Source: an uncultured Ohtaekwangia sp.
GTDB taxonomy: Bacteria > Bacteroidota > Bacteroidia > Cytophagales > Cyclobacteriaceae
Length of the DNA stretch: 64,000 bases
Direction: 5' to 3'
NCBI GenBank assembly: GCA_964524935.1
Contig: CAZGFJ010000004.1
Coordinates: 95,463 to 159,462, forward strand
Numbering within the stretch: the stretch's first letter is position 1; the number at the start of each line of letters is the position of its first letter. Positions 1 to 23,900 of this stretch are shown one piece after another. The translations under genes were made by a program, and so were the position numbers. The notes below the pieces were generated by a model that did no database searches, was not told where the DNA came from, and worked only from the letters and a program-made list of their open reading frames with translations.

Positions 1-1
1 C

Positions 2-124
2 GAAGGGGAATTGGAGATCGGCCAGGTGTCGGCCGCGATCCGGGACATTCAACCCGCGGCCGACATTGTGCACGCAATCTGGACGGAGTACCTGGAAACC
101 AAAAAACGCATCACCGACTCATGA
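2..124 (+). CDS. 3' end of an unidentified gene that starts upstream of the window
   Basis: Open frame from the window edge (…EGELEIGQVSAAIRDIQPAADIVHAIWTEYLETKKRITDS*). Its TGA overlaps the next ATG (ATGA). GC-rich, backbone-like codon usage. Confidence 0.3.
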   Translation, partial: EGELEIGQVSAAIRDIQPAADIVHAIWTEYLETKKRITDS

Positions 125-510
125 ATGTACGGCAGATCAAAGAAACCTGCATTTACATGCGCGATTTAGAGCTGGCACGCAGCTTCTACCACGACCGGCT
201 GGGGTTGCCGGTGATCAGCCACGTCAAGGACAAACATATCTTTTTCCGGGTGGGCACGTCTGTCTTGCTGTGTTTTAACCCGGATGACTCGCGGCTGAAG
301 ACGAGCCCTCCGGGTCATTTCAGCGAGGGCAAATATCATTTCGCCTTTGAAATTCCGGCCCGCGAATACGAAGACCACAAACGCCACCTGAGCGAGCGCG
401 GCATCAACATCATGGATGAAGTTACGTGGGCCAATGGCTTGAAATCTTTCTACTTCGAAGACCCCGCGGGCAATGTGCTGGAGTTGGTACCGGAGGGTGT
501 GTGGGAGTAA
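121..510 (+). CDS. VOC (glyoxalase/bleomycin-resistance/dioxygenase) superfamily protein
   Basis: 129 aa. The beta-alpha-beta-beta-beta pattern and 'HFAFEI…FYFEDPAGNVLEL' are typical of VOC family proteins. Confidence 0.8.
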   Translation: MNVRQIKETCIYMRDLELARSFYHDRLGLPVISHVKDKHIFFRVGTSVLLCFNPDDSRLKTSPPGHFSEGKYHFAFEIPAREYEDHKRHLSERGINIMDEVTWANGLKSFYFEDPAGNVLELVPEGVWE

Positions 511-669
511 GGCTATGTTTTTTGTAGTGGTGCACCCCAAAAATCCACCTCGATCAGCTTCTTGGATTTTTCAAGTCGGCATGCTATTTTCGAAATAGGT
601 GCAGTTGTAGGTGGCTAGTGTTGGTGGCTTTGGGTCTGGGCAGTTTAGAAATCCAAACAGAAAATTGAG

Positions 670-1863
670 ATGAATAAACAAGATTTTAAATTCAATGGTG
701 ACTGGGAGTACGAAATTGACTTGCCAATGCTTTCTGGTTTTCAACAAAGGAAGGATCCTTATAATTCAGTTTCCGGTAACGCACCCAATAAAGGTATGTT
801 TAGACTAGAATTCGAAGACGACTTGACAGAAAATCCAGACCCTTATCCTGAGCAGTTAAATACCTTAAACTTTATTTTCGATAATCAAGATAAAATAGCG
901 AAATCAATTATTGACAGGACATTAGCAGAGCTAAATCAAATCAAAATTAGTTATGGCTTAGAGCGGGAAGAACACTATCAAAACCTAAATGAGCAAAAAA
1001 TCCAATCCTTAATTGGTTTCAGTTCACTGTATATTTACGTCATTTCAAAAGATGGTTTTTCATATTTTGATTTTTTAGGCGGCTGTAGTTGGGACGAAGA
1101 ACATGGACTAAGTATACTTTTTCATAAAGACAGGGTTATTTCATTTAGTGGAATTGACGGCAATTCCATCTTTGAAGCAAAAAGAGATGGTGGCTCATTC
1201 GGTAACAATCGGGATAACATCGTTCCTGAAAAGGAAAAGCCGATAAAATTCTTTCCTCATCCCAAGCACAACAAACTAAAACCTTCACATAAAACAGCAA
1301 ATGAGGCGTACGAACTAACTTTAATTTCGCAAGGACATAATGAAGATTTTATCAAAGGTGTTGAGAATGGAGAAATTGAGATAAATGGAAAGTGTAAAGG
1401 TGATGGGAAAACCTATCTAGAGGCAGCTTGCTGGCATAACAACAACTTTTTGGTTGGATATCTTTTGAGTAAAAAAGCAAACCTAAGATATGCACTACAT
1501 CAATGTATTGGACATAGCAATAATCCGGAAGCCTTGAAACTGTTACTTGGTAATGGAGCTGATATCAATGCCCAATATGAGAATGGCAATACTGTTCTAT
1601 TTGAAGTCGTAACAAACTTGGAGAGTTTTTATAGATCAACAAATTATTACAAACGAATAAAAAGACCTGATTTAATCACTAGAGATATTCTTGAAAGATT
1701 CGAAGCTGATAGAGTGAAAGTCAAAGAACTGATTAAACTTGGTGCTGATCCATTTATTAAGAACACCTATGGGCATAGTTGTTTTGACATAATGAGGAAT
1801 GAAGACGAAGGATCAAAAAACGAGTTAAATAGGTTTCTAGAACAATGCCTGAATGAGAGGTAA
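670..1863 (+). CDS. ankyrin-repeat protein with an N-terminal immunity-protein-like domain
   Basis: 397-aa ORF in an AT-rich island. The C-terminal half has ankyrin-type repeats (LLGNGADINAQYENGNTVLFEVV; LIKLGADPFIKNTYGHSCFDIM). The N-terminal domain has a 'GGCSWDEEHGLSILF' motif. Confidence 0.7.
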   Translation: MNKQDFKFNGDWEYEIDLPMLSGFQQRKDPYNSVSGNAPNKGMFRLEFEDDLTENPDPYPEQLNTLNFIFDNQDKIAKSIIDRTLAELNQIKISYGLEREEHYQNLNEQKIQSLIGFSSLYIYVISKDGFSYFDFLGGCSWDEEHGLSILFHKDRVISFSGIDGNSIFEAKRDGGSFGNNRDNIVPEKEKPIKFFPHPKHNKLKPSHKTANEAYELTLISQGHNEDFIKGVENGEIEINGKCKGDGKTYLEAACWHNNNFLVGYLLSKKANLRYALHQCIGHSNNPEALKLLLGNGADINAQYENGNTVLFEVVTNLESFYRSTNYYKRIKRPDLITRDILERFEADRVKVKELIKLGADPFIKNTYGHSCFDIMRNEDEGSKNELNRFLEQCLNER

Positions 1864-1870
1864 AACTGTT

Positions 1871-1998
1871 ACTAACTCTGCATATACATCGTTGTATATA
1901 ACGTGCTGATTTACTAACTTATATTTCGAATACGGTTTGTGCACGGGGTAGTGACTGGTGCCATACTGTGGCAACCTTGCACATACAAAGCGTTAACG
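1871..1998 (+). repeat. attC-like imperfect inverted repeat (island 1)
   Basis: Begins 8 nt after the stop codon with TTACTAAC and ends with GTTAACG (1992-1998). Internal pairing is cgttgtat/atacaa and tgtgcacgg/ccttgcaca. Its 3' half (gtagt..GTGCCATACTG..gcaca..aaagYGTT) is homologous to 14950-14990. Confidence 0.35.
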
Positions 1999-2048
1999 CT
2001 TACGCCACCGCAAACGAAAAAGTGTTTGAAAAGCCTTACCTTTGGACT

Positions 2049-2300
2049 ATGAACTGGCAGGATTACATAGTATCGGACAACGAGGTTTTACTAGGCAAAC
2101 CGACTGTTAAAGGGACAAGGATTTCCGTTGAGCATATTGTAGGACTTTTAGCACAGGGCTGGACGGAAAATGAAATCCTTGAAAATTTTCCACGACTGAC
2201 AAAACAGTCACTTCAAGCTGTATTTGCATATCTCCAAGACTGTATGCATGACGGTCTTTTATTTACCCCGATAAGAAAGACAGCCGGATTGACTTCATGA
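2049..2300 (+). CDS. DUF433 domain protein (putative antitoxin)
   Basis: 'LLGKPTVKGTRISVEHIVGLLAQGWTENEILENFPRLTKQSLQAVFAY' is the DUF433 signature. ATG 2049 is preferred over the upstream GTG 1968, which would run through the attC-like site. Overlaps the next gene by 4 nt. Confidence 0.75.
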   Translation: MNWQDYIVSDNEVLLGKPTVKGTRISVEHIVGLLAQGWTENEILENFPRLTKQSLQAVFAYLQDCMHDGLLFTPIRKTAGLTS

Positions 2301-2650
2301 AATTGTTAGCCAACGAAAATTTCCCACTGAAGAGTATTTTGTATTTGAGAAGCAAAGGTTTTGACATTCGTTCTATCGGGACAGACAATCCAAGCATTCA
2401 AGACAATATTGTGATGAATATTGCAATTGATGAGGCACGAACTATTTTGACTTTTGACAGAGACTATGGTGAATTGATTTTCAAACACAACTACAGGCCA
2501 AAAAAGGGAGTAATTTATCTGAGACTTGACGAATACACGGCAGACGAGCCAGGTAGAATAATTGAAGACTTAATCCATAAGAAAGAATTCAACTTTGATA
2601 ACGCGCTCACGGTAGTAGATATAAAAGGCGTAAGGCAAAGAAAATACTGA
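2297..2650 (+). CDS. DUF5615 (PIN-like / Mut7-C-like) putative toxin
   Basis: 117 aa. 'MKLLANENFP…ILTFDRDYGELIF' is typical of DUF5615 partners of DUF433. ATGA overlap with the upstream gene. Confidence 0.75.
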   Translation: MKLLANENFPLKSILYLRSKGFDIRSIGTDNPSIQDNIVMNIAIDEARTILTFDRDYGELIFKHNYRPKKGVIYLRLDEYTADEPGRIIEDLIHKKEFNFDNALTVVDIKGVRQRKY

Positions 2651-2738
2651 TGTTACGGTCACAACTCTCAATTGCGTAACCTACCTTGTCAGTTGTACTT
2701 GGCGAAGTGAGGTGATGCAGCCTAACGCTTGCCTCACA

Positions 2739-3038
2739 CTACTGCATCTGCCATTTCCACTGCCGAACGGGCTCGGGAGGGCTGGCAACCACTTGCTGCT
2801 GGCGCCACGCCTGGTAGTCTTTGAATTGCACACAATCATTGAGCAACTCGTTGTCCTGAAGGATACGGATGATCTTGTCGCGCTCAAAGGTTTTCCAAAA
2901 AAGTTCTTGCTCGCCCTTGGCCATGGCCGATATGCGTACGTATTCGATCCCCTTGTATACCTCTGGCTGCGGCTTCATATCTTTGTTGCTTTGTTTACTT
3001 TTATGCGAGGCCTCGTGGGCTTTGTAACCTCGTTTCAC
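2739..3038 (-). CDS. hypothetical protein
   Basis: 99-aa ORF with a protein-like composition (…EVYKGIEYVRISAMAKGEQELFWKTFERDKIIRILQDNELL…). Start is uncertain; an internal ATG would give MKPQPEV. Confidence 0.5.
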   Translation of the reverse strand: MKRGYKAHEASHKSKQSNKDMKPQPEVYKGIEYVRISAMAKGEQELFWKTFERDKIIRILQDNELLNDCVQFKDYQAWRQQQVVASPPEPVRQWKWQMQ

Positions 3039-11771: not shown

Positions 11772-11914
11772 GCCGCGTAACAAGCAAGCAAATTCCACAT
11801 AAGGCCGTGGCCCTGCCGGTTCCACGGCATTCTTACCTGGATAGCCGTTGTGCGGATATCTGCGTACATTCGCTGGATATACGAACGTAGTTCGTATATA
11901 TGGGAGTTAGCGGC
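11772..11914 (+). repeat. possible leftmost attC-like / junction site of the cassette array
   Basis: GCCGCGTAAC lies directly after the peptidase stop codon, and GTTAGCGGC lies at 11906-11914 (complementary apart from 1 extra base). Internal hairpins are gccgtgg…ccacggc and the palindrome at 11877-11899. Confidence 0.3.
11877..11899. repeat. perfect palindrome ATATACGAAC-GTA-GTTCGTATAT
   Basis: 10-bp arms and a 3-nt centre, read directly. Lies 6 nt upstream of GTTAGCGGC at the GC-rich/AT-rich boundary. Confidence 0.6.
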
Positions 11915-11931
11915 AACCGCGCAGGACAACA

Positions 11932-12450
11932 ATGACAACAATGATAAAACGACATTTGACAATATTGACATTGTTAATTTGTACATCTGTAACGGGACAA
12001 ACAATAGTTGGGGTCTGGACTGCAACTTCTGTAAGACTTGACGGTTCAGCAGACTCAAGACAGCTCCAAACAAAGGAAGATAAAGTTCGATTTACCTTTG
12101 ACAAAGACGGTTCCTATGTAAAGTCCTTTTATGTACCAAAAGACATGGATTCCAGACCTTTATATGCCGACTTTGAAATTAGGGATGGCCGCATCGAAAA
12201 AAGAGAATTTCTTGACAAAAACGGTTATAAACAGAAAATGATTGTTGTTTCAGAGAAAGTTGAAAAGGGAGAATATCATATTAACGTAACAAACGACACT
12301 ATCACATTTAAGTCAGTTCAATCACATGTTAAGAGCGGACTTAGTCTTGAGACATCAAGTATGTTAATCATTGAGACCGTTGACAATAGACCAATTTATA
12401 TTACTCTGCTGCCTGACAAGAAGAAAATAGGAAAGCGCGGCAGCCGCTAA
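11932..12450 (+). CDS. hypothetical secreted protein (cassette ORF)
   Basis: AT-rich ORF with the signal peptide (M)IKRHLTILTLLICTSVTGQ. Its TAA stop lies inside the attC-like core GCCGCTAAC. Confidence 0.6.
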   Translation: MTTMIKRHLTILTLLICTSVTGQTIVGVWTATSVRLDGSADSRQLQTKEDKVRFTFDKDGSYVKSFYVPKDMDSRPLYADFEIRDGRIEKREFLDKNGYKQKMIVVSEKVEKGEYHINVTNDTITFKSVQSHVKSGLSLETSSMLIIETVDNRPIYITLLPDKKKIGKRGSR

Positions 12451-12575
12451 CACCGGGTTTGTTTAATGGCGGGCGACACAGTCGCCCGTAGTGTCAGCAA
12501 GTTTATTTATATTCGTGTAGGCGGACAAATCCTCCGGATTTATCCGCCACTAAACAAACCCAAAACGTTGGCGGC
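12443..12575 (+). repeat. attC-like recombination site (133 bp)
   Basis: The 5' arm gccgcTaac-acc-gggtttgtttaAtggcgg pairs with the 3' arm ccgccActaaacaaaccc-aaaac-gttGgcggc. R boxes match 8/9 and L boxes 17/18, with unpaired spacers and extra inner hairpins. Confidence 0.6.
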
Positions 12576-12622
12576 AATGCTTCAGGACGGTTTGGACACA
12601 CTTGACATAAACAACTATAGAT

Positions 12623-13273
12623 ATGGCAAAAGAACTTCCTCCTTACGTAAACTCGACCGGACTACTTCAGGAACTCTTTAAAAAGATTCAAGAAGCCCCA
12701 CCACCAAGTAGGTTTAGCGGTGACTTTTTATTTACCAATTTGAAGTTTAAGAAATCTGGGAGTACGATTCCGTTTATTCCTTTTTTAAAACGGATTGGTT
12801 TCTTATCCACGGACGGTTCACCGACAGAGATATATAAAAAATTTAGAAACCCGGACACGAAGGTTTCCGGACAAGCAATGGCCCAAGCATTTAGGGTGGC
12901 TTATGCGGACTTATACAGTAGGAACGAATATTGGCATTCTAAATCCACTGAGGACTTAAAGAATTTTCTTGTTGAAGTTTTAGAAGTAGAAAAGAGTAAT
13001 CCCACTTTGACAGTCTTAATTAGAACTATCGAGACTTTAAAGAAGCTAGCAAATTTTGAAGCCTCGGTGGACACAGAGGAAGAAGAGGAAGAAGAACCTG
13101 AAACTGAAAAACAAAATAATTCGAATAACAGCGACCAAGCCAAACCAAAACATTCTGACTTGGCTGGAATTAATTTGTCTTATACAATTAATCTTAATTT
13201 ACCCGAAACTTCAGACGGCAAAGTATTCGATGCTATATTCAAGAGTTTAAAAGAAAATCTCCTTAAGAAATGA
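12623..13273 (+). CDS. DUF5343-like protein (N-terminal domain, acidic linker, short C-terminal tail)
   Basis: 216 aa. 'PPYVNSTGLLQELFKKIQEAPPPSRFSGDFL…IPFLKRIGFLSTDGSPTEIYKKFRN' is recognised as DUF5343-like. Followed by an EEEEEEEPETEKQNNSNNSD linker and an 'INLSYTINLNLPETSDGKVFDAIFKSLKENL' tail. Confidence 0.65.
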   Translation: MAKELPPYVNSTGLLQELFKKIQEAPPPSRFSGDFLFTNLKFKKSGSTIPFIPFLKRIGFLSTDGSPTEIYKKFRNPDTKVSGQAMAQAFRVAYADLYSRNEYWHSKSTEDLKNFLVEVLEVEKSNPTLTVLIRTIETLKKLANFEASVDTEEEEEEEPETEKQNNSNNSDQAKPKHSDLAGINLSYTINLNLPETSDGKVFDAIFKSLKENLLKK

Positions 13274-13854
13274 ATTTTTCAAATAACGAAAATGTCGTCA
13301 AGCTTTTTGGTATAACAAACCAATTTGCTGAGTTCGATTTGGACAGGGTTGAGAAACAATATCAAATTGACTTGGGACGTAAAAAAAATAAAGTCGAGAA
13401 GGATAATATTTATTACCCTCAGTTTGAATTGGAAGTTCGAAAGGAGGCCAAAAATATGGCCAAACACTATGAGATATTTTATTGCCTCGAGAAATCCATA
13501 CGCGATTTAATCTCTACGACTTTAGAAGCGACTGGCGAAGATTGGTGGGACAATAAAGCACCACAAGTTGTTAAAGATGAAGTTAGGAAAAGAATTCAGA
13601 GAGAAAGGGATTCTGGTGTAACCGTTCGGTCAGACGAGCCAATTGACTTTACGACATTTGGAGAACTAGGAGAGATAATTAAATCCAATTGGACAATTTT
13701 TCAAACAATATTCAATAGCATTAAAGCAGTTGAGAATGTTATGAATCAATTGAATACTCTTAGAGGACCAATTGCTCACTGCTCAAAATTAGCAGAGGAC
13801 GAAGAATTAAGATTGCAGATAACAGTTCGCGCTTGGTTTAGACTCATGGAATAA
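13270..13854 (+). CDS. Swt1-like HEPN domain protein (putative RNase, Rx4H motif)
   Basis: 194 aa with an ATGA overlap to the upstream ORF. 'FYCLEKSIRDLISTTLEATGEDWWD' plus the C-terminal 'LNTLRGPIAHCSKL' (R165…H170, nt 13762-13779) form a HEPN Rx4H motif. Confidence 0.7.
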   Translation: MNFSNNENVVKLFGITNQFAEFDLDRVEKQYQIDLGRKKNKVEKDNIYYPQFELEVRKEAKNMAKHYEIFYCLEKSIRDLISTTLEATGEDWWDNKAPQVVKDEVRKRIQRERDSGVTVRSDEPIDFTTFGELGEIIKSNWTIFQTIFNSIKAVENVMNQLNTLRGPIAHCSKLAEDEELRLQITVRAWFRLME

Positions 13855-13872
13855 GACCGGTGAAGAAGCACA

Positions 13873-14067
13873 GCCGCCAACAAAATGTTTATGCAATGCG
13901 GGCGTTCGGTGTTAAATTAAAGTTTATGTTTCATAATGTAGTTCGGTAACGGGGGACAGTTTGGAGCAGGTCGGGCTTAACACCTGCCTGCCGGCAAAGG
14001 CAGGTTCCGCTGCGCTTCATTTTTAAGCCCTCCTATTCCCCGCACTGCATAAACACAGACGTTAACG
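13873..14067 (+). repeat. attC-like recombination site (long, about 195 bp)
   Basis: The 5' core GCCGCCAAC is the exact complement of the previous site's GTTGGCGGC. L boxes tgtttatgcaAtgcggg / ccccgcActgcataaaca match 16/17. The 3' core is GTTAACG. The interior folds into a long imperfect stem (gggcttaa/ttaagccc, acctgcct/aggcaggt). Confidence 0.55.
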
Positions 14068-14140
14068 TTTATGCCTGCGGACTCCCAAAATAATTTGGAG
14101 TATATCTAAAAAGTATATACCTTTGGACAACGGTAATAGT

Positions 14141-14371
14141 ATGAAAAATCTATCATTAAAGCTGGAAGACGATATTTTTCAGGAGACTGAAAGAATCGTG
14201 ACAAAGGTTAAAAAAAGCCGCAATAGATATATAAACGAGGCTATTGAATTCTATAACAGACTTCATAAGCGGAGACTTCTTTCAAAGCAGTTGAGTAAGG
14301 AATCAAAAATGGTTTCCAAAGACTCATTGGAAATATTGGCAGAGTTTGAAAAACTGCACGATGAGGATTAA
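14141..14371 (+). CDS. ribbon-helix-helix (CopG-like) antitoxin
   Basis: 'MKNLSLKLEDDIFQETERIV…RNRYINEAIEFY' is an RHH N-terminus. Overlaps the mazF-like start. Confidence 0.75.
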   Translation: MKNLSLKLEDDIFQETERIVTKVKKSRNRYINEAIEFYNRLHKRRLLSKQLSKESKMVSKDSLEILAEFEKLHDED

Positions 14372-14705
14372 GCAATTTGAGATTTGGATTGCTGACTTAA
14401 ATCCAAGAATCGGAACAGAGACAGGAAAAATAAGACCTGTTATTGTTATTCAGACTGACTTACTAAATAAGGAACACCCATCGACTATTGTTTGCCCAAT
14501 AACGACAAACGTAAAACCTAACTCGGAGATATTGAGAGTTCATCTTAAAAAACGAAAATTTGGACTCAAGGAGGACTGTGACATAATGATTGATCAAATC
14601 AGAGCAATTGACAACAAACGACTTGTTAAAAAAGTCGGAGTTGTTGATAGCGACACAGCTGAAAAGATTGGAGAGAACTTAAAAATAGTTTTGGGCCTGG
14701 ACTAA
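14361..14705 (+). CDS. mazF: type II toxin, MazF/PemK family endoribonuclease
   Basis: 'FEIWIADLNPRIGTETGKIRPVIVIQTD…STIVCPITT…IMIDQIRAIDNKRL' is the canonical MazF/PemK signature. Confidence 0.85.
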   Translation: MRIKQFEIWIADLNPRIGTETGKIRPVIVIQTDLLNKEHPSTIVCPITTNVKPNSEILRVHLKKRKFGLKEDCDIMIDQIRAIDNKRLVKKVGVVDSDTAEKIGENLKIVLGLD

Positions 14706-14712
14706 TCGGCAC

Positions 14713-14990
14713 AAACGCCAACAGCGGTAGCTGTTGCACAACTATTGGTTTGAAAAAAAACGGAAAATTGGCGCCTGATTGCGCATACCTCTGTTGATAA
14801 CTCAGCGAGTGGAAGGATCTTCTGATTTTTTCGTCAATTCCAAACATAAAGGGTCACCCCAAACCAGCTTGCGGCTTGCTAATGCGCTTTTAGGATTCGC
14901 ATATAAGGGACTTATACCCCTCGGACAATCAAACTAAATTCCCGACTGGAAAGTAGTTGTGCCATACTGGGCACGCACAAAGTGTTTATC
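14713..14990 (+). repeat. degenerate or long attC-like site
   Basis: The 5' core AAACGCCAAC matches the complement of the previous GTTAACGTTT at 8/10. gcacaactat (14735-14744) pairs with gtagttgtgc (14954-14963) at 9/10. The 3' half is homologous to the island-1 site and ends in GTTTATC. The length is atypical. Confidence 0.3.
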
Positions 14991-15219
14991 CCAGCTGCGG
15001 GGGAAGTGCAAGTATGAAGTTTAGTTTTTATATTTCGTTTCGGCACGTGGGACAAGACGCGGCTTCGAAATCCGCAGCCGTCATAAATACGGGTCATTAT
15101 GCACAATGCCGAGGGACAGCGCAGTGGCAACCCGCATGGCCACGTGCATTGGCACATTTGCTTGCCGCTCAAATCCACCGTGAACCCAAAGCTACGGCAA
15201 GAGCCAAGTCTTTCCCGCT

Positions 15220-15987
15220 TCAAAACAAGCTTTTAAACGACTGCTCATTCTGAATAGTAATCATCATTTCTTCCACCGTTTTAACTACATGCTGATGAAC
15301 AAAATTACCGCTGCTAATACGCTTCACGCCTAATTTTTGCAGTTCTCCAAACGCGGGTAACTGCGGCATGCACATCACATTGATGGGCAATTTAGTAGAG
15401 ATCACTACCGCTTTGATGTCTTCCGGGTTAACAACGCAGGGCACAAAAATGCCATGTACTCCGGTGGTCTGATATTCTTGTATTCGTTGAATCGTTTCGG
15501 ATAGTGCATTCGGTAAGCCTTGTATAAATCCATCGGTTCGCACATTGATGAATAGCTTGATGTTCTTTCTTTGCAAGTGGCCAGCGATTTCTTCCAATGC
15601 CTTTCGGAAACTATCCAGTTCTTGAAGTGCACGCGGGTTTCCCGGCAACGAGTCTTCAATGTTGATGCCTACCACACCCACATCATGCAATCGCTCAATA
15701 TTCTGGCAAATGCCTTCAACGGTTCGACTAAATCCGCCTTCAATATCCACAGACAGTGGCAGATGGGTTACTTGATTAACACGTTTCGCAAGTTGAATCA
15801 GCAACTCAAATGGAAGCTGCTCACCATCCTCATACCCAAACGAATTAGCTACAGCCGCGCTGGAAGTAGCAATGGCCCTGTAACCGGCTCTCTCTACCAA
15901 CTGGGCACTTTTCACATCCCAAATATTCCCGATTAACAAGGGTTGTGATTGTTGATGCAGATTAAGGAAGTCTTCAAATGATTTCAT
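15220..15987 (-). CDS. isocitrate lyase / PEP mutase family protein
   Basis: 255 aa. 'LLIGNIWDVKSAQLVERAGYRAIATSSAAVA…LPLSVDIEGGF…GVVGINIEDS' matches the ICL/PEPM family. Confidence 0.8.
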   Translation of the reverse strand: MKSFEDFLNLHQQSQPLLIGNIWDVKSAQLVERAGYRAIATSSAAVANSFGYEDGEQLPFELLIQLAKRVNQVTHLPLSVDIEGGFSRTVEGICQNIERLHDVGVVGINIEDSLPGNPRALQELDSFRKALEEIAGHLQRKNIKLFINVRTDGFIQGLPNALSETIQRIQEYQTTGVHGIFVPCVVNPEDIKAVVISTKLPINVMCMPQLPAFGELQKLGVKRISSGNFVHQHVVKTVEEMMITIQNEQSFKSLF

Positions 15988-16120
15988 GGTTTTTATCTGT
16001 TACATCAGTTTCTTAATAAAGACACCCAGGCTTCGGTAGTTAATTTCAAAATCTCTTTTCCCAGACGAAATCTCAGCTAACACACCGGCTTGCCAACGGT
16101 TGCGTAAGTTAACCCCAAAC

Positions 16121-16615
16121 TTAAAAGCGTTCAAGCGTAAAGTCATTTTGCGACCCATACATCGTGACGTTTACTTCATTCTGAAGTAGTAAGCGAATCC
16201 CTTTCGAAATTGCCGGTTGCCAAGCCACAAAAACGAAGTGGTCGTGAAAGTTGTTCCTACTGATTTCTTTTGTGAGGTAGATATAAATAAACCAATCGCG
16301 GCTACCACAAATGTACTGAAACCCCAATGCGCTGTAAAGCCGCTGCGAGGTATAAACACTATTTGATGTTATACCTATACCGCTTTTAAAAGCGTACGCA
16401 ACGCTATTGAACGAATATAAAGCGGTGGTTTTATCATAAAAACCCGAAGCGAGGTTTCGCGAAAGCACCGGCCAACGCTTGAGTGAGTCCAGCGAAGTGC
16501 TGTGTATCACATCAATGCCTGTTCGCGCTGAACCTGCATTGACCTCGTATGTGGTTTGAGCAACGCAACATAAGCTCATAAAAAGAAAAAATACTGTGTT
16601 CCCAGAGTGTGACAT
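16121..16615 (-). CDS. putative outer-membrane beta-barrel-like protein (possibly frameshifted)
   Basis: ATG 16615 gives the signal peptide MSHSGNTVFFLFMSLCCVAQ and an alternating-hydrophobic beta-strand pattern. A 45-codon continuation exists in another frame down to about 16004. Confidence 0.45.
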   Translation of the reverse strand: MSHSGNTVFFLFMSLCCVAQTTYEVNAGSARTGIDVIHSTSLDSLKRWPVLSRNLASGFYDKTTALYSFNSVAYAFKSGIGITSNSVYTSQRLYSALGFQYICGSRDWFIYIYLTKEISRNNFHDHFVFVAWQPAISKGIRLLLQNEVNVTMYGSQNDFTLERF

Positions 16616-16701
16616 GACTATTTTCAGGCAAATAAAAAGCAATATCTTTGATGCCAGAAATACCATCTTTGACCACTTTTGATAACTATTGAGTATCAAT
16701 T

Positions 16702-17562
16702 ATGGAACTACGACATTTGCGCTACTTCAAACTCTTGGCTGAAGAACTTCATTTTCGGAAAGCCTCCGATAAACTTCATATCGCGCAACCTGCTTTGAGC
16801 CGACAGGTGAAAGAACTGGAGAAAGAACTCGGAGTAACGCTATTTGAACGAAACAGACGAAAGGTTGCACTATCGCCAATGGGCAAGCATCTGTACAACA
16901 AAACAATTGTCATCTTTAGATTAGTTGAGGAGACAAGGAAAGAGCTGAAGGAATTGGAGACGATGGAAGTGGGGAAATTGCGTGTTGGCTACGTTGCCTC
17001 GGCTTTGTACTCGGCTCTGCCCAGGTTCCTGGCTAGTCTGAAAAAAAATAAACCACGTCTGCAAGTATCTATTTGTGAAATGTCAACATCTGACCAAATT
17101 GAAAGTCTTCGAAATGGTTCGCTGGAGGTGGGCTTCGTACGCGGCCCTGTCAACAGCAAAGACCTCACGCAGACAATTGTTTACAAAGAAGACTTTGCCT
17201 TATTCCTTCCGGCCAATCATCCATTAGCGAAGAAGCGCCTTACCGACTTGCGCGTTTTACGAGATGAACCGTTTGTTTTCTTCCCTCGCCATTACAATCC
17301 GAGCTACTTCGATAAAACCATAAGTCTTTGCGAGCATGCAGGATTTTCGCCAAACATTCAGTATGAAGGCTTGGGCAGTAACACTCTGTTGCAAATGGTT
17401 GGCAGTGGACTCGGTGTTACGATTCTTCCTCACAGCCTGAAAAGTTCAATTAGCAAGGAAGTGAAATCATTTCCGCTGACATGGATTAGAGAAAAAGCTG
17501 AACTGGTAATGGTTACACAAGCAACCTTTGCTGAAAATAAAATATTTGACTTCAACGTATAG
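16702..17562 (+). CDS. LysR family transcriptional regulator
   Basis: 'MELRHLRYFKLLAEELHFRKASDKLHIAQPALSRQVKELEKELGVTLFER' is a LysR HTH. Divergent from the 16121-16615 and 15220-15987 genes. Confidence 0.85.
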   Translation: MELRHLRYFKLLAEELHFRKASDKLHIAQPALSRQVKELEKELGVTLFERNRRKVALSPMGKHLYNKTIVIFRLVEETRKELKELETMEVGKLRVGYVASALYSALPRFLASLKKNKPRLQVSICEMSTSDQIESLRNGSLEVGFVRGPVNSKDLTQTIVYKEDFALFLPANHPLAKKRLTDLRVLRDEPFVFFPRHYNPSYFDKTISLCEHAGFSPNIQYEGLGSNTLLQMVGSGLGVTILPHSLKSSISKEVKSFPLTWIREKAELVMVTQATFAENKIFDFNV

Positions 17563-17828
17563 TTGGTTTCATGTGACCGCACACACATTGGCAGGCCTCA
17601 CATCCGACCCGCATCCAAAGCCAACCAAAGAATGTGCTCAGTATAGTGTAGATAGAGAAAGTTGTCAGTGAACAATGCCACACCACAAGACTGACTAAAA
17701 AAGAGTTGTATAAATTAACGGGTGACAGGAATGCAGGCCACAAATGACGTGTGGACTTGGGCCCCACAGCTACCATCAGCATGTTTCTGCAATGATGCCG
17801 TGAAGAGTTGGTATAACGTTTTATCTTC

Positions 17829-17898
17829 GTTCCACGTTTTGTTTCGTAGGACAGGACGCGGCCTCGGAATGGCACTGCAGAAACACAAACGTCAGCGG
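17829..17898 (+). repeat. weak attC-like site
   Basis: acgttttgtttc (17834-45) pairs with gaaacacaaacgt (17880-92) with one bulged base. The 3' core is GTCAGCGG (17891-98), whose exact complement CCGCTGAC occurs at 20235-42. The 5' core is poor. Confidence 0.3.
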
Positions 17899-17942
17899 TA
17901 ATACCACAAGCGACTTTCCAACTATCAACAGTCAGACAGAAA

Positions 17943-18662
17943 ATGAACGACACCGACACAAAACGACTTTCACGACTAATTGCAATTTTAACACAACTGC
18001 AAACAAAACGACTTTTGACGGCTCCGGATTTAGCGAACAAGTTTTCGGTTAGCACCCGAACCATTTACCGAGACATCAAAGCATTGGAACAAGCAGGCGT
18101 CCCCATTCTGACAGAAGACGGAAAAGGTTATACTTTAATGGATGGTTACAGAATGCCGCCAGTAATGTTTTCCGAAAGTGAGGCTAATGCTTTGATTACA
18201 GCCGAAAAATTGATTTTAAAAAACAAAGACGCATCTCTTGTAAAGGACTACACCGAAGCCATCACTAAAATCAAATCTGTATTACGAAGCCACACAAAAG
18301 ACAAGGCCAATTTGCTTTCTAATCGCATTAGATCAGGACAAAACACCGGCAGTACTCGTACAAGCAACAATTTATCGACCCTTCAATTAGCTTTGACAAA
18401 TTTTAAGGTTGTCAAAATAAAATATTATTCGCCAGAAAATAACCAAGCCACAGAAAGAACCGTAGAACCATTTGCCATTTACACTTCACAGGAAAATTGG
18501 TTGCTCATTGCGCTTTGCAGATTGAGAAATGACTACAGGGCATTTCGTTTAGATAGAATTGAAAGCTTGTTGGTGCAAAACCACACATTTGAACCTCATA
18601 AAATGACATTTGAGGAGTATTTTGACATTTGCAGAAAAAAATGTACACCACCCTTGACATAG
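17943..18662 (+). CDS. YafY-type HTH + WYL domain transcriptional regulator
   Basis: 'RLSRLIAILTQLQTKRLLTAPDLANKFSVSTRTIYRDIKALEQAGVPI' is the HTH and 'ERTVEPFAIY…WLLIALCRLRNDYRAFRLDRI' is the WYL domain. Confidence 0.8.
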   Translation: MNDTDTKRLSRLIAILTQLQTKRLLTAPDLANKFSVSTRTIYRDIKALEQAGVPILTEDGKGYTLMDGYRMPPVMFSESEANALITAEKLILKNKDASLVKDYTEAITKIKSVLRSHTKDKANLLSNRIRSGQNTGSTRTSNNLSTLQLALTNFKVVKIKYYSPENNQATERTVEPFAIYTSQENWLLIALCRLRNDYRAFRLDRIESLLVQNHTFEPHKMTFEEYFDICRKKCTPPLT

Positions 18663-18713
18663 GGCTGTCACAAGAGCATTCCAGTTTTGCAACCTAATCA
18701 ACATTAACTGATA

Positions 18714-19274
18714 ATGAACAACAACTTTCACAACTTAATTCTTCTTGCATTAATACTACCCTCATTCACAGCTCAATCTCAAATACAAAAAAATACATAT
18801 AAGACATTGAACACTCAAACTATTCAAAAATTCCACGTGATCGGAATTTCAACAAGAACAACGAATGAAAATGGACAATCTGTCAAAGACATCGAAGCAT
18901 TGTGGGGTACGTTTTGGGGCGAAGAAATTCAAAAACAAATTCCCAATAAAGTGAGTGATGAAATTTATGCAGTTTATACAAATTATGAAGCCGATTTCAC
19001 AAAGTCTTACACCACGATTTTAGGGTTACCAGTACGTTCGTTAGAAAATATTCCTAAGGGATTTGTTGGCATAACAATTGAAACTTCCACGTACCAAAAA
19101 TTTGTCTCCAAGGGTAAAATGCCAGACGCTGTTTTCAATACTTGGTTAGAAATATGGGGAAATAACGAACTAAACTTAAAACGAGCCTACAAAGCAGACT
19201 TTACTATTCACGGACAAAAGTATTATGATGGAGACAAAGCAGAAGTAGAAACTTTTATATCCGTAAAAGAATAA
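18714..19274 (+). CDS. GyrI-like small-molecule-binding domain protein with a signal peptide
   Basis: 'FHVIGISTRTTNENGQSVKDIEALWGTFW…YAVYTNYE…FNTWLEIW' follows the GyrI-like / AraC-effector-binding pattern. Confidence 0.7.
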   Translation: MNNNFHNLILLALILPSFTAQSQIQKNTYKTLNTQTIQKFHVIGISTRTTNENGQSVKDIEALWGTFWGEEIQKQIPNKVSDEIYAVYTNYEADFTKSYTTILGLPVRSLENIPKGFVGITIETSTYQKFVSKGKMPDAVFNTWLEIWGNNELNLKRAYKADFTIHGQKYYDGDKAEVETFISVKE

Positions 19275-19293
19275 ATTGATTGAAAAGCACATA

Positions 19294-19354
19294 CGCCTAA
19301 CAGTTTTGCAAAACCAGCCTGCCGCAGGCTCGCCAAGCCGAAAACCGTTAGCGG
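19294..19354 (+). repeat. attC-like recombination site (61 bp, canonical size)
   Basis: cGCCTAACagttttgc …agcctg-ccg-caggct… cgaaaaccGTTAGCGg. It has RYYYAAC/GTTRRRY cores, paired L boxes and a central hairpin, and starts 20 nt after the stop codon. Confidence 0.65.
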
Positions 19355-19415
19355 TCATTGTAAAACCATCCTACAACATCGAAAGACGATAGACAGAAAC
19401 AAAAACAATTTGAAA

Positions 19416-20225
19416 ATGAAAGTATTTATAATTGACGCATTTACAAACGAGGCATTTAAAGGCAATCCAGCAGGTGTTTGTTTATTGGAAAATGAAATTA
19501 GCGTTGAGACAATGCAAGCGATTGCCACTGAAATCAACCTGTCTGAAACTGCATTTTTAAAACAGAATAATAACTCCGATACCGACTATTCAGTTAGGTA
19601 TTTCACGCCAACTGTTGAAATAGATTTTTGCGGACACGCCACATTGGCATCTGCAAAACTAATTCTGCATCATTTGCAAAAGTCATCTGTGAATTTTACC
19701 ACTTTCCGTAATTTGAAGTTAAGTGCTACAAGCCAAGGTGAAGATATCAAAATGAAATTTCCAATTTATGAAACTATAAACTTTACGCCTACGAAAGAAC
19801 TATATGAAGTATTTGATATTAAAAGCCCCGTTGCAACAAAATTTGCAAAGGACTTAGAAATGTTAGTTGTTGAAGTTCAGGATAAAGAAACATTGTTAAA
19901 CATAAAGCCAGATTTTGTAAAAGCAATTCAAACTTCTGATAAAATAAAAGAATTAGTCGTTACTGCAAAGTCGAAAGACAAAGAATATGACTTTTATTCA
20001 CGTTGCTTTTGTCCTTGGATAGGAATAAACGAAGACCCGGTGACAGGTGCATCACATTCTGTTTTAGCTAAATATTGGAGTGAAATTTTAGGAAAGTCCG
20101 AAATGATTGCTTTTCAATCCTCGAAACGTGGTGGATTTATGAAATTGCAAATTCTTAGTGATACCGAACTTGTAGTTACAAGTAATGCTAAAATTATATT
20201 TGAAGGAAAAATGAATATCGAATAA
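19416..20225 (+). CDS. PhzF family isomerase
   Basis: 'MKVFIIDAFTNEAFKGNPAGVCLL…INLSETAFL…RYFTPTVEIDFCGHATLA…DPVTGASHSVLAKYW' matches PhzF. Confidence 0.85.
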   Translation: MKVFIIDAFTNEAFKGNPAGVCLLENEISVETMQAIATEINLSETAFLKQNNNSDTDYSVRYFTPTVEIDFCGHATLASAKLILHHLQKSSVNFTTFRNLKLSATSQGEDIKMKFPIYETINFTPTKELYEVFDIKSPVATKFAKDLEMLVVEVQDKETLLNIKPDFVKAIQTSDKIKELVVTAKSKDKEYDFYSRCFCPWIGINEDPVTGASHSVLAKYWSEILGKSEMIAFQSSKRGGFMKLQILSDTELVVTSNAKIIFEGKMNIE

Positions 20226-20307
20226 GCCAACGAACCGCTGACATGGTATTGCCAAAAGAGGTTCCTACAGTGCAACCTCGCTAACGAATTAAATTTTCCT
20301 GTTCGCA
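20225..20307 (+). repeat. possible attC-like site (poorly paired)
   Basis: AGCCAAC lies directly after the stop codon, and …CCGCTGAC matches the complement of the upstream GTTAGCGGTC at 8/10. There is a central hairpin gaggtt/aacctc and a GTTCGCA at 20301-07. The L boxes do not pair convincingly. Confidence 0.25.
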
Positions 20308-20435
20308 AAAGGCGATGATGTTTTGCTTCAGGCAGTTCAAGCCAAACAAAAATTAGTACATTGAAATTGGATAAACAGCAAAAGAAAGTGAGATTTATGA
20401 CAATTTGTTAGAATTAATTTGCCAACTGGTAATGT

Positions 20436-20987
20436 ATGGTCCAGAAAATGACACAACGAGCCAATTTTGCTCTTCAATTCCTCAGAGGCCTCTTGACAAT
20501 TTTGATACTCTTCTCACTAAATGTCGCATTTTGTCAAGCAACTTCCCGAAAGCTACCAGAACCATCACAAGATCAAATCAAAAAAAAGTCATCAGAAAAA
20601 GGATTAGCCTATCTGGAAGGAAATTTTAAGAAAGAGGGAATTCGAGTAAATCTAAAAGAATCAATCGATTGCGTGGATGCAAACAAAAGCAACAACTGTG
20701 TCTGTGCGTGGCAGCAACATTTTGAAGGCGGAATTGAATATAGCTACAATGAATGTCGTGGTTCTGTAATCGAAACGACCATCACCTTCACGGATTATGA
20801 CTCGAAAGAGATTACTAAATTTGTAGACATTTTATTCAAGGCAGGCAGCAACGTCTGGAATCGTGAGAAAACCGAGTATAAACTAAAAACTGACTACGTA
20901 CCTAAAGAGGGAGACCTTACCTGCAACTATCAAATCAAACAACAAAATGGCAAAGTTGTACTAATCTGCATTTGCGCATGGTGGTGA
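20436..20987 (+). CDS. hypothetical secreted Cys-containing protein
   Basis: AT-rich ORF with a signal-like N-terminus (…LLTILILFSLNVAFCQA). No recognisable domain. Confidence 0.55.
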   Translation: MVQKMTQRANFALQFLRGLLTILILFSLNVAFCQATSRKLPEPSQDQIKKKSSEKGLAYLEGNFKKEGIRVNLKESIDCVDANKSNNCVCAWQQHFEGGIEYSYNECRGSVIETTITFTDYDSKEITKFVDILFKAGSNVWNREKTEYKLKTDYVPKEGDLTCNYQIKQQNGKVVLICICAWW

Positions 20988-21189
20988 CGTACTTGAGTTT
21001 CTTTAGCAATCAATCATTACTGAGCGACAAGAATTCCTGAACGCGTAGAGAGTCGGCAGCTGTAAATCAGTATGCGTGTTGAAAGCTAGATACCTGGAGA
21101 CACGATGATCAGAAATTCAGCGTTTCAAGGTTTAAAGTCTATCTTCGTCCAACGTTTGGTGTCAGACTAACCAAACACTTCCATCCCGC

Positions 21190-23825: not shown

Positions 23826-23900
23826 GGTGAATGTAGCTCAGTTGGTTAGAGCACCAGATTGTGATTCTGGGGGTCGCGGGTTCAAGTCCCGTCTTTCACC
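23826..23900 (+). tRNA. tRNA-His: tRNA-His (anticodon GTG), with encoded G-1
   Basis: Cloverleaf read by eye: G-1, acceptor gtgaatg/ctttcac, D arm gctc…gagc, anticodon arm ccaga-ttGTGat-tctgg, T arm gcggg-ttcaagt-cccgt. No encoded CCA. Confidence 0.9.

Follow-up and report, generated by a model that had tools for sequence, protein, structure and literature searches.

A DUF5343–HEPN gene pair matching the defence candidate PDC-M34, carried as an integron cassette in an uncultured Ohtaekwangia sp.

RnlA–RnlB and LsoA–LsoB are type II toxin–antitoxin pairs with a HEPN toxin that act against phage T4. Here we describe a gene pair that invites comparison with them, found in a stretch of 64,000 nucleotides (nt) of contig CAZGFJ010000004.1 from an uncultured Ohtaekwangia sp. 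(Bacteroidota); this whole stretch is called the window, and coordinates are those of the window. The pair consists of two open reading frames (ORFs) on the plus strand, ORF1 (12623-13273, 216 amino acids (aa)), encoding a DUF5343 protein that matches the PADLOC model PDC-M34A, and ORF2 (13270-13854, 194 aa), encoding a Swt1-like HEPN protein that matches PDC-M34B. Like RnlA–RnlB and LsoA–LsoB, the locus is a two-gene module in which a HEPN ribonuclease (RNase) is presumed to be held by a small partner that binds it directly, and freed on infection. It differs from them in that ORF1 is unrelated to RnlB, the partner gene comes first and ORF2 carries a 53-residue N-terminal extension. In addition, the HEPN domain of ORF2 belongs to the Abi2/Swt1 branch, and scans of Pfam, PADLOC and NCBIfam gave no RnlA/LsoA-type profile match.

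Three other HEPN systems provide points of comparison. In the HEPN–MNT (type VII) system HepT–MntA, as here, a small HEPN RNase gene with an Rx4-6H motif is preceded by the gene for its partner; ORF1, unlike the partner in that system, is without a nucleotidyltransferase domain (DUF5343 is its sole Pfam match), which excludes neutralisation by AMPylation. Anantharaman et al. grouped the bacterial Swt1-like HEPN domains with Abi2/AbiD/AbiF in an Abi2/Swt1 class and called them catalytically active and associated with restriction–modification (RM) systems (PMC3710099). The AbiD/AbiF (Abi_2) proteins thus share the HEPN class of ORF2 (PMC3710099) and have a role in phage exclusion, but they are single proteins, whereas the partner is obligatory here, and neither Pfam nor PADLOC gave an Abi_2 match. 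In Las1–Grc3, a short conserved C-terminal motif of the partner acts on the HEPN domain and offers a model for the tail of ORF1 (PMC10942766); in that case, however, a kinase carries the motif and the effect is activation of the nuclease, the process is rRNA processing and there is no sequence relationship.

The closest catalogued system is a computational one. From a collection of gene cassettes embedded in loci of the BREX, DISARM and type I RM systems, Payne et al. kept 145 predicted 'phage defence candidates', among them PDC-M34 (CAS_00130, FAM_01148>>FAM_01657, table count 97) (bioRxiv 10.1101/2024.01.29.577857). The composition of the pair in the window is identical to that of PDC-M34, itself a bioinformatic candidate only. 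PDC-M34 was discovered embedded in other defence systems, and the integron-cassette form described here differs in this respect. Integron cassettes are known to carry toxin–antitoxin and phage-defence systems, mainly from Vibrio and mobile integrons. The cassette of the window resembles those in its G|TT core, its own attC, its position in an array and its toxin–antitoxin or defence-like cargo; it differs in that the array is of a Bacteroidota type, no integrase was found in the window ORFs checked and two of the four attC sites are decayed.

The gene pair and its two proteins

Judged by its profile matches, the pair is an instance of candidate PDC-M34 of PADLOC-DB v2, with both component models matched nearly end to end. 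ORF1 matches PDLC04589 (PDC-M34A, E 8.5e-48) with residues 6-213 on profile positions 5-207 of 208, and ORF2 matches PDLC04592 (PDC-M34B, E 2.2e-35) with residues 13-191 on positions 9-188 of 192. The two genes adjoin each other on one strand, A before B. NCBIfam gave no match for either protein, and NetFlax does not cover the pair. An earlier note on this DNA, made from the sequence alone, had proposed an uncharacterised candidate module; in view of the catalogue entry found by the PADLOC check, the module is uncharacterised but not unrecognised.

The same note had read ORF2 as a Swt1-like HEPN protein with an R165/H170 dyad, and the profile search bears this out. ORF2 matches Pfam HEPN_Swt1 (PF18731) with E 1.7e-11 and 44.8 bits, against a gathering cut-off of 27.5, over residues 69-192 and profile positions 2-113 (112/115); a second HEPN family gives a weaker, in-register match. 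The Rx4H motif, R165-G-P-I-A-H170 within LNTLRGPIAHC, is encoded at 13762-13779 on the plus strand, with R165 at 13762-13764 and H170 at 13777-13779. Neither residue varies among 61 sequences, and in 59 pairs from many phyla the conservation of each is 95% or more; E74, R78, E112, N162, D177 and E178 are also conserved. ORF2 is acidic (median pI 5.1) and has 2418 homologs at E<=1e-3. On these matches it is a HEPN-family protein with a complete Rx4H motif, and RNase activity is predicted.

The AlphaFold2 model of ORF2 (pLDDT 84.8) starts with an N-terminal helix (residues 6-31), followed by a loop with a conserved YYPQF and by the HEPN domain (54-193). The core helices of this domain span residues 54-86, 99-114 (with the conserved acidic residues E104 and E112), 151-170, which follows an insert and ends at H170, and 176-193. 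Published descriptions of HEPN domains place the Rx4-6H motif on helix-3 (PMC3710099). The modelled secondary structure matches the published four-helix layout, with Rx4H ending helix-3 and the insert lying between helices 2 and 3. A distant HEPN_Swt1 homolog from a cyanobacterial plasmid aligns with ORF2 in the HEPN part only (hhalign probability 98.5%); it is without ORF2 residues 1-53, has a different N-terminus and follows a gene that is not DUF5343. The joint absence of both features suggests that residues 1-53 and the DUF5343 partner go together.

The assignment of ORF1 as DUF5343-like, also made in the earlier note, is supported by a Pfam DUF5343 match with E 3.4e-39 over residues 7-148; there are 1370 homologs at E<=1e-3. 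The protein has three parts. The folded N-terminal domain (aa 1-145, 12623-13057, plus strand) is modelled by AlphaFold2 with pLDDT > 90 as helical with one short beta hairpin: helices at 12-24, 33-39 and 51-58, the hairpin at about 61-67 and then five more helices. It is basic (median pI 9.46), with a mean pairwise identity of 46.5% among 59 homologs. The linker (aa 146-182, 13058-13168, plus strand) is acidic with Asn, disordered (pLDDT < 50 for residues 152-188 in the AlphaFold2 model) and not conserved: in the same 59 homologs its mean pairwise identity is 7.9%, its length 27-48 aa and its charge net negative in all but two (57/59).

The C-terminal tail (aa 183-216, INLSYTINLNLPETSDGKVFDAIFKSLKENLLKK, encoded at 13169-13270 on the plus strand) is the most conserved part of ORF1. 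Its 34 residues have a mean pairwise identity of 72.7% across phyla in the 59 homologs, and the stretch YTINLNLPE is invariant in 56 sequences (Y187, T188, I189, N190, L191, N192, L193, P194 and E195); a helix is predicted by AlphaFold2 at 199-215. The homolog alignment therefore contains both the poly-Glu/Asn linker and the conserved tail that had been noticed in the single sequence. The NCBI record of the source contig appears to annotate ORF1 as a 131-aa product starting from M86. The deposited start looks under-called, since the 216-aa form is kept in all homologs and is called on other contigs.

The two genes overlap in an ATGA at 13270-13273 on the plus strand, read directly from the sequence, where the stop codon of ORF1 meets the start codon of ORF2. 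This arrangement, which had already been pointed out, is predicted translational coupling of ORF1 and ORF2. A scan of 185,579 species-representative genomes gave 230 matches, and the best 80 loci (51-93% identity to ORF2) were analysed. They span at least 14 phyla, including Bacteroidota, Acidobacteriota, Proteobacteria, Actinomycetota, Nitrospirota, Verrucomicrobiota, Chloroflexota, Cyanobacteria, Spirochaetota and Patescibacteria. In 77 of the 80 loci the gene just before ORF2, on the same strand, is an ORF1 homolog, and in the other three ORF2 is at a contig edge; adjacency, which the earlier note had wished to see checked, is therefore found in 77/77 judgeable loci. Where a start could be placed for ORF2, the two genes overlap by 1-17 nt or are separated by no more than 6 nt; the one exception is an in-frame ORF1–ORF2 fusion of 401 aa in an Acidobacteria metagenome-assembled genome (L041:1885-3090). 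This fusion supports a physical partnership, although it occurs only once and an assembly error could account for it.

The divergence of ORF1 and that of ORF2 are correlated pairwise (Mantel r 0.72, a value reached by 0/999 permutations). By these comparisons the two genes stay together in inheritance and in transfer and, as in type II toxin–antitoxin systems, form a compact bicistronic operon conserved as such. No Pfam family recurs among its neighbours (118 flanking ORFs in 74 loci, at most two members each), which include the housekeeping genes for RecA, DnaB and ribonucleotide reductase.

Some copies are damaged. At L071:4083-6594, ORF1 is split by an insertion of about 1.4 kb that resembles an insertion sequence and carries two overlapping minus-strand ORFs, while the tail-coding part and an intact ORF2 are kept; the tail and intact ORF2 likewise persist at other loci with a broken ORF1 N-terminal domain. 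Tail-only partners that might have been taken for domain swaps (L050, L061) were rejected as frameshifted or deleted copies, some of them in nanopore assemblies. The idea of DUF5343 as a swappable sensor was also set aside. It would have drawn on two fusions that are singletons: P0323 (457 aa), with DUF5343 and a Ser/Thr kinase domain, and P0370 (371 aa), with DUF5343, a coiled coil and a region of two transmembrane helices. They carry no weight, since a kinase occurs in 0/120 of the closest relatives of the DUF5343 part of P0323.

The integron cassette and its surroundings

The pair is carried as a genuine mobile integron gene cassette. The cassette (12568-14061, plus strand, 1494 nt) begins with the TT of the core site upstream and ends with the G of R′ in its own attC. 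The upstream attC (12441-12577, plus strand), detected as inverted repeat I13 and by a covariance model, is the 3′ end of a preceding lipocalin-like cassette. Its R″ core lies within GCCGCTAAC (12443-12451), its R′ is GTTGGCG (12567-12573) and its 18-nt arms (12455-12472 and 12544-12561) are 94% complementary; the 5′ boundary of the cassette falls between G12567 and T12568. The attC of the cassette itself (13871-14071, plus strand), detected as inverted repeat I24 and by the same model, has a long variable central region, with R″ CGCCAAC (13875-13881), R′ GTTAACG (14061-14067) and 17-nt arms (13886-13902 and 14039-14055) that are again 94% complementary. The 5′ end of the cassette, GTTGGCGGC (12567-12575), is matched in its own attC by the exact reverse complement, GCCGCCAAC (13873-13881), as would be expected after a cut at G|TT. 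The same complementarity is seen in the preceding cassette, between GTTAGCGGC (11906-11914) and GCCGCTAAC.

ORF1 and ORF2 are the only supported genes between these two attC sites; the remaining ORFs in the interval are short, nested in ORF1 or ORF2 in other frames and without homolog support. Together with the repeat arms, the covariation and the covariance model, this upholds the earlier description of the pair as the sole genes between two well-formed sites. The GC content is 0.38-0.40 in the cassette versus 0.52-0.57 in the backbone. No operator was recognised in the cassette leader and the Bacteroidetes -33/-7 promoter pattern was not seen there by eye; the total of sigma-70-type sites in the region is not higher than in shuffled sequence.

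Both flanking sites belong to an attC family common to the window and three other Bacteroidota contigs (L001, L002 and L005). A consensus fold and a covariance model were built from nine sites, including the two that flank the cassette. In the consensus fold the AAC/GTT pairing is invariant, followed by an unpaired spacer and a long stem with unpaired bases in the L stem, and compensatory changes on both sides occur in 20 of the 23 predicted pairs; so folded, the nine-site consensus is the classic attC layout. The model finds four attC sites in the window, all on the plus strand. It gives 105.3 bits (E 1.9e-21) to the upstream attC and 122.8 bits (E 2.8e-25) to the cassette's own attC, both being sites of the training set, and both keep intact AAC/GTT cores. 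The other two, outside the training set, score E 6.9e-16 and 9.4e-12. As read from the sequence, their cores are decayed, with the GTT lost in one (14971-15106, plus strand) and changed to GTC in the other (17767-17901, plus strand). A generic hairpin scan found the two flanking sites only, and the covariance model was needed for the decayed pair.

Comparison with other contigs gives the same picture of mobility. In the closest relative, L001, an 85% nucleotide identity is limited to 12565-13883 and the flanks are unrelated; as it starts at 12565, the similarity begins at the recombination point. L002 has a near-identical attC, with similarity up to 14063. The pair also adjoins attC sites in L002, L004, L005 and L023, and an attC of this type lies beside it in six or seven of the 80 loci, all on Bacteroidota-like contigs; over 70 of the 80 lie outside cassette arrays. 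On one Bacteroidetes contig of 5.8 kb (L023:2-5745) the pair occurs twice, with an attC directly after the first copy, and is duplicate cargo in one array. Two Logan metagenome contigs, L081 (1495 bp) and L082 (1405 bp), are 100% identical to the window and hold the pair only. Both stop within the flanking attC sites, which would be the outcome if assemblies broke at repeated attC sequences.

The cassette is part of a low-GC island (11800-21000, GC 0.35-0.46 versus 0.52-0.57), which is a cassette array with the four attC sites of the same family. The next cassette (14062-15106) encodes a CopG/ribbon-helix-helix-like protein (14123-14371), with weak matches only, and a PemK/MazF toxin (14346-14705, E 5.2e-29) whose gene overlaps it. 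The earlier note had seen a MazEF cassette here; the toxin stands, and the preceding partner is CopG-like by a weak match. This cassette is probably fixed in place, owing to its degenerate attC. The defence-island context that the note drew from it proved weak, the setting being a decaying cassette array with toxin–antitoxin pairs. No integrase domain was detected in the ORFs checked on either side of the array, not every window ORF having been scanned, and on this basis the array is not a complete integron with intI and attI beside it. The island thus looks like a partly decayed cassette cluster without an integrase.

Other features of the region may be noted briefly. The island also encodes a Cass2 'integron-associated' gene (18714-19274), a WYL-HTH regulator, PhzF-like and LysR genes and, on the opposite strand, a PEP-mutase-like gene. 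A stretch at 11772-11914, GCCGCGTAAC...GTTAGCGGC, lies directly after the stop codon of an S9 peptidase gene. This could be the first site of the array, attC-like or attI-like and divergent; it escaped the attC covariance model. A second low-GC patch (window 1-3000) contains a toxin–antitoxin-like DUF433/DUF5615 pair (1968-2300 and 2297-2650, with a 4-nt overlap) and an ORF with DUF6985 and ankyrin repeats (670-1863). A tRNA gene (23827-23900), about 3 kb past the right end of the island, was the sole match in an Rfam scan of the window.

How ORF1 may control the HEPN protein

We give an even chance to the reading that the pair is an RNase module of a toxin–antitoxin-like or abortive-infection kind, with ORF1 binding, controlling and silencing the HEPN protein by means of its tail. 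The invariant C-terminal tail, a strand plus a helix, would bind ORF2, docking likely on its N-terminal extension or in the cleft of the HEPN dimer. The flexible acidic linker would tether the tail to the basic folded domain, which could bind nucleic acid or another ligand. In the resting cell the ORF1–ORF2 complex would hold the RNase silent; the loss, displacement or ligand-binding of ORF1, for example on phage infection or cassette loss, would free or switch on the HEPN dimer, which would then cleave cellular or phage RNA and stop growth. The outcome would be abortive-infection defence, with stabilisation of the cassette array as a by-product. It is by inference that we assign to such a module a physical contact through the tail, a sign of regulation, an RNA target, a trigger and a phage phenotype.

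Several observations argue for this toxin–antitoxin-like reading. Among them are the HEPN profile match of ORF2, its invariant catalytic residues, its modelled helix topology, the matches to both PDC-M34 models and the natural fusion in L041. The pairing is strict, the genes are coupled, their divergence is correlated and no neighbour family recurs, as in a self-contained module. A folded domain, a disordered linker and a short conserved tail make up a layout known from type II antitoxins, ParD2 among them (PMC8251345). The tail and intact ORF2 are retained where the ORF1 N-terminal domain is broken, which points the same way. So do the signs of partner specificity, the plasmid homolog without residues 1-53 being also without a DUF5343 partner, and the integron cassette setting beside a MazF cassette. 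If the N-terminal domain of ORF1 is compared with the DNA-binding domains of antitoxins, it is basic and begins helix-helix-helix-hairpin, with no significant fold match.

A number of results weigh against this reading. In the structural check suggested for ORF2, the helix layout of its AlphaFold2 model fits HEPN, but Foldseek recovered no HEPN fold and no significant match for the model among PDB or BFVD (viral) structures (best E 0.89 and 0.26, respectively), and a profile search of PDB sequences also gave no match. The accompanying rmsd of about 20 Å suggests that the extended N-terminal helix probably spoils the global superposition. Foldseek likewise found no significant PDB match for the ORF1 model. 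The charges (ORF2 acidic, ORF1 domain basic at a median pI of 9.5) are the reverse of those in many toxin–antitoxin pairs. The intact ORF2 beside the split ORF1 of L071 suggests that ORF2 may not be lethal without full-length ORF1. The 55-nt cassette leader has no sigma-70-type site upstream of ORF1. As for distribution, defence genes recognised by PADLOC are sporadic among the 118 neighbours in 74 loci. Plasmids gave one distant match with a different partner in 72,556 records, and the family was not found in 50,697 phage records or in complete Escherichia coli genomes. Finally, a full-text literature search found no experimental study of PDC-M34 or any member, in agreement with the earlier note, which knew of no experimental function for the pairing.

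A related reading, which we put forward tentatively and regard as possible rather than probable, is that of a distinct, widespread DUF5343–HEPN defence family with an undescribed control logic, in which a basic sensor domain for nucleic acid or another ligand, an acidic, disordered and possibly RNA-mimicking linker and an invariant 34-residue peptide would switch the HEPN protein. The peptide would plug or prime the HEPN active centre, and a phage-derived ligand on the sensor would pull it off or push it in, thereby switching the RNase. On this view the unusually strong conservation, seen in at least 14 phyla, would stem from a tightly co-adapted interface between peptide and enzyme.

It seems somewhat unlikely that ORF1 and ORF2 are instead an obligate two-subunit RNase, with ORF1 as activator and RNA-binding adaptor, its basic domain bringing the substrate, its tail inserted into the HEPN active centre to switch it on and ORF2 inert alone. 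The precedent is Grc3, whose C-terminal loop binds the active centre of the Las1 HEPN domain and activates cleavage (PMC10942766). The tail is, besides, the most constrained element of ORF1, one natural ORF1–ORF2 fusion exists (L041), and the acidic ORF2 and basic ORF1 domain fit an activator or an RNA-binding adaptor as well as they fit a neutraliser or sensor. In L071 an intact ORF2 is tolerated beside the broken ORF1, but this may simply be due to polar loss of ORF2 expression. The top Foldseek matches of ORF1 are to the winged-helix/ratchet region by which DEAH helicases contact RNA, but they are not significant (E 0.4-3). Partner-first order, coupling, patchy distribution over phyla and the cassette setting are traits of toxin–antitoxin or defence modules, and no housekeeping context recurs, which argues against an activator. 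Taken together, the evidence does not decide whether ORF1 is an inhibitor or an activator of ORF2.

The possibility of a plain addiction module, a toxin–antitoxin pair that prevents loss of the cassette array and has no anti-phage role, appears unlikely. In its favour, the pair lies beside the MazF pair in an array in which no integrase was found, a second toxin–antitoxin-like pair lies at 1968-2650 and defence genes are not consistently near the pair in the 74 loci. On the other side, Payne et al. came upon PDC-M34 embedded in BREX, DISARM or type I RM systems (bioRxiv 10.1101/2024.01.29.577857), plasmids, where addiction modules are classically found, hardly carry the family, and over 70 of the 80 loci lie outside cassette arrays. 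Most improbable of all is a non-toxic RNA-binding or processing factor with a housekeeping role and ORF1 as cofactor: the core function of Las1, the inactive binder that is eukaryotic Swt1 (PMC3710099) and the unusually high sequence conservation speak for it, but the catalytic R and H are invariant, and the pair is rare (230 matches in the 185,579 genomes), scattered over at least 14 phyla, of foreign GC here, in a mobile cassette and without a conserved neighbourhood.

Status and meaning of the module

In every respect that could be tested, the locus is, at the level of sequence, a PDC-M34 pair, a member of the HEPN_Swt1 family and an integron cassette; it cannot be filed as a proven toxin–antitoxin pair or defence system. 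The novelty is modest and consists of the finding that in Bacteroidota the pair moves as an integron cassette, together with a definition of its anatomy. The practical value is also modest, as the system is of a familiar kind and HEPN two-gene modules are already well known.

Even so, the module is a clean experimental target, given its strict pairing, its unusual degree of conservation and its invariant tail. The handles for such work are the invariant tail of ORF1, the N-terminal extension of ORF2 that is tied to the DUF5343 partner, and the R165/H170 dyad. If the module works as proposed, it would be a validated addition to the repertoire of HEPN RNases in defence and toxin–antitoxin systems, and the PDC-M34 entry would become a mechanism. 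The cassette also fits recent reports of phage-defence systems stored in integron cassettes and extends them to a Bacteroidota cassette family with its own type of attC.

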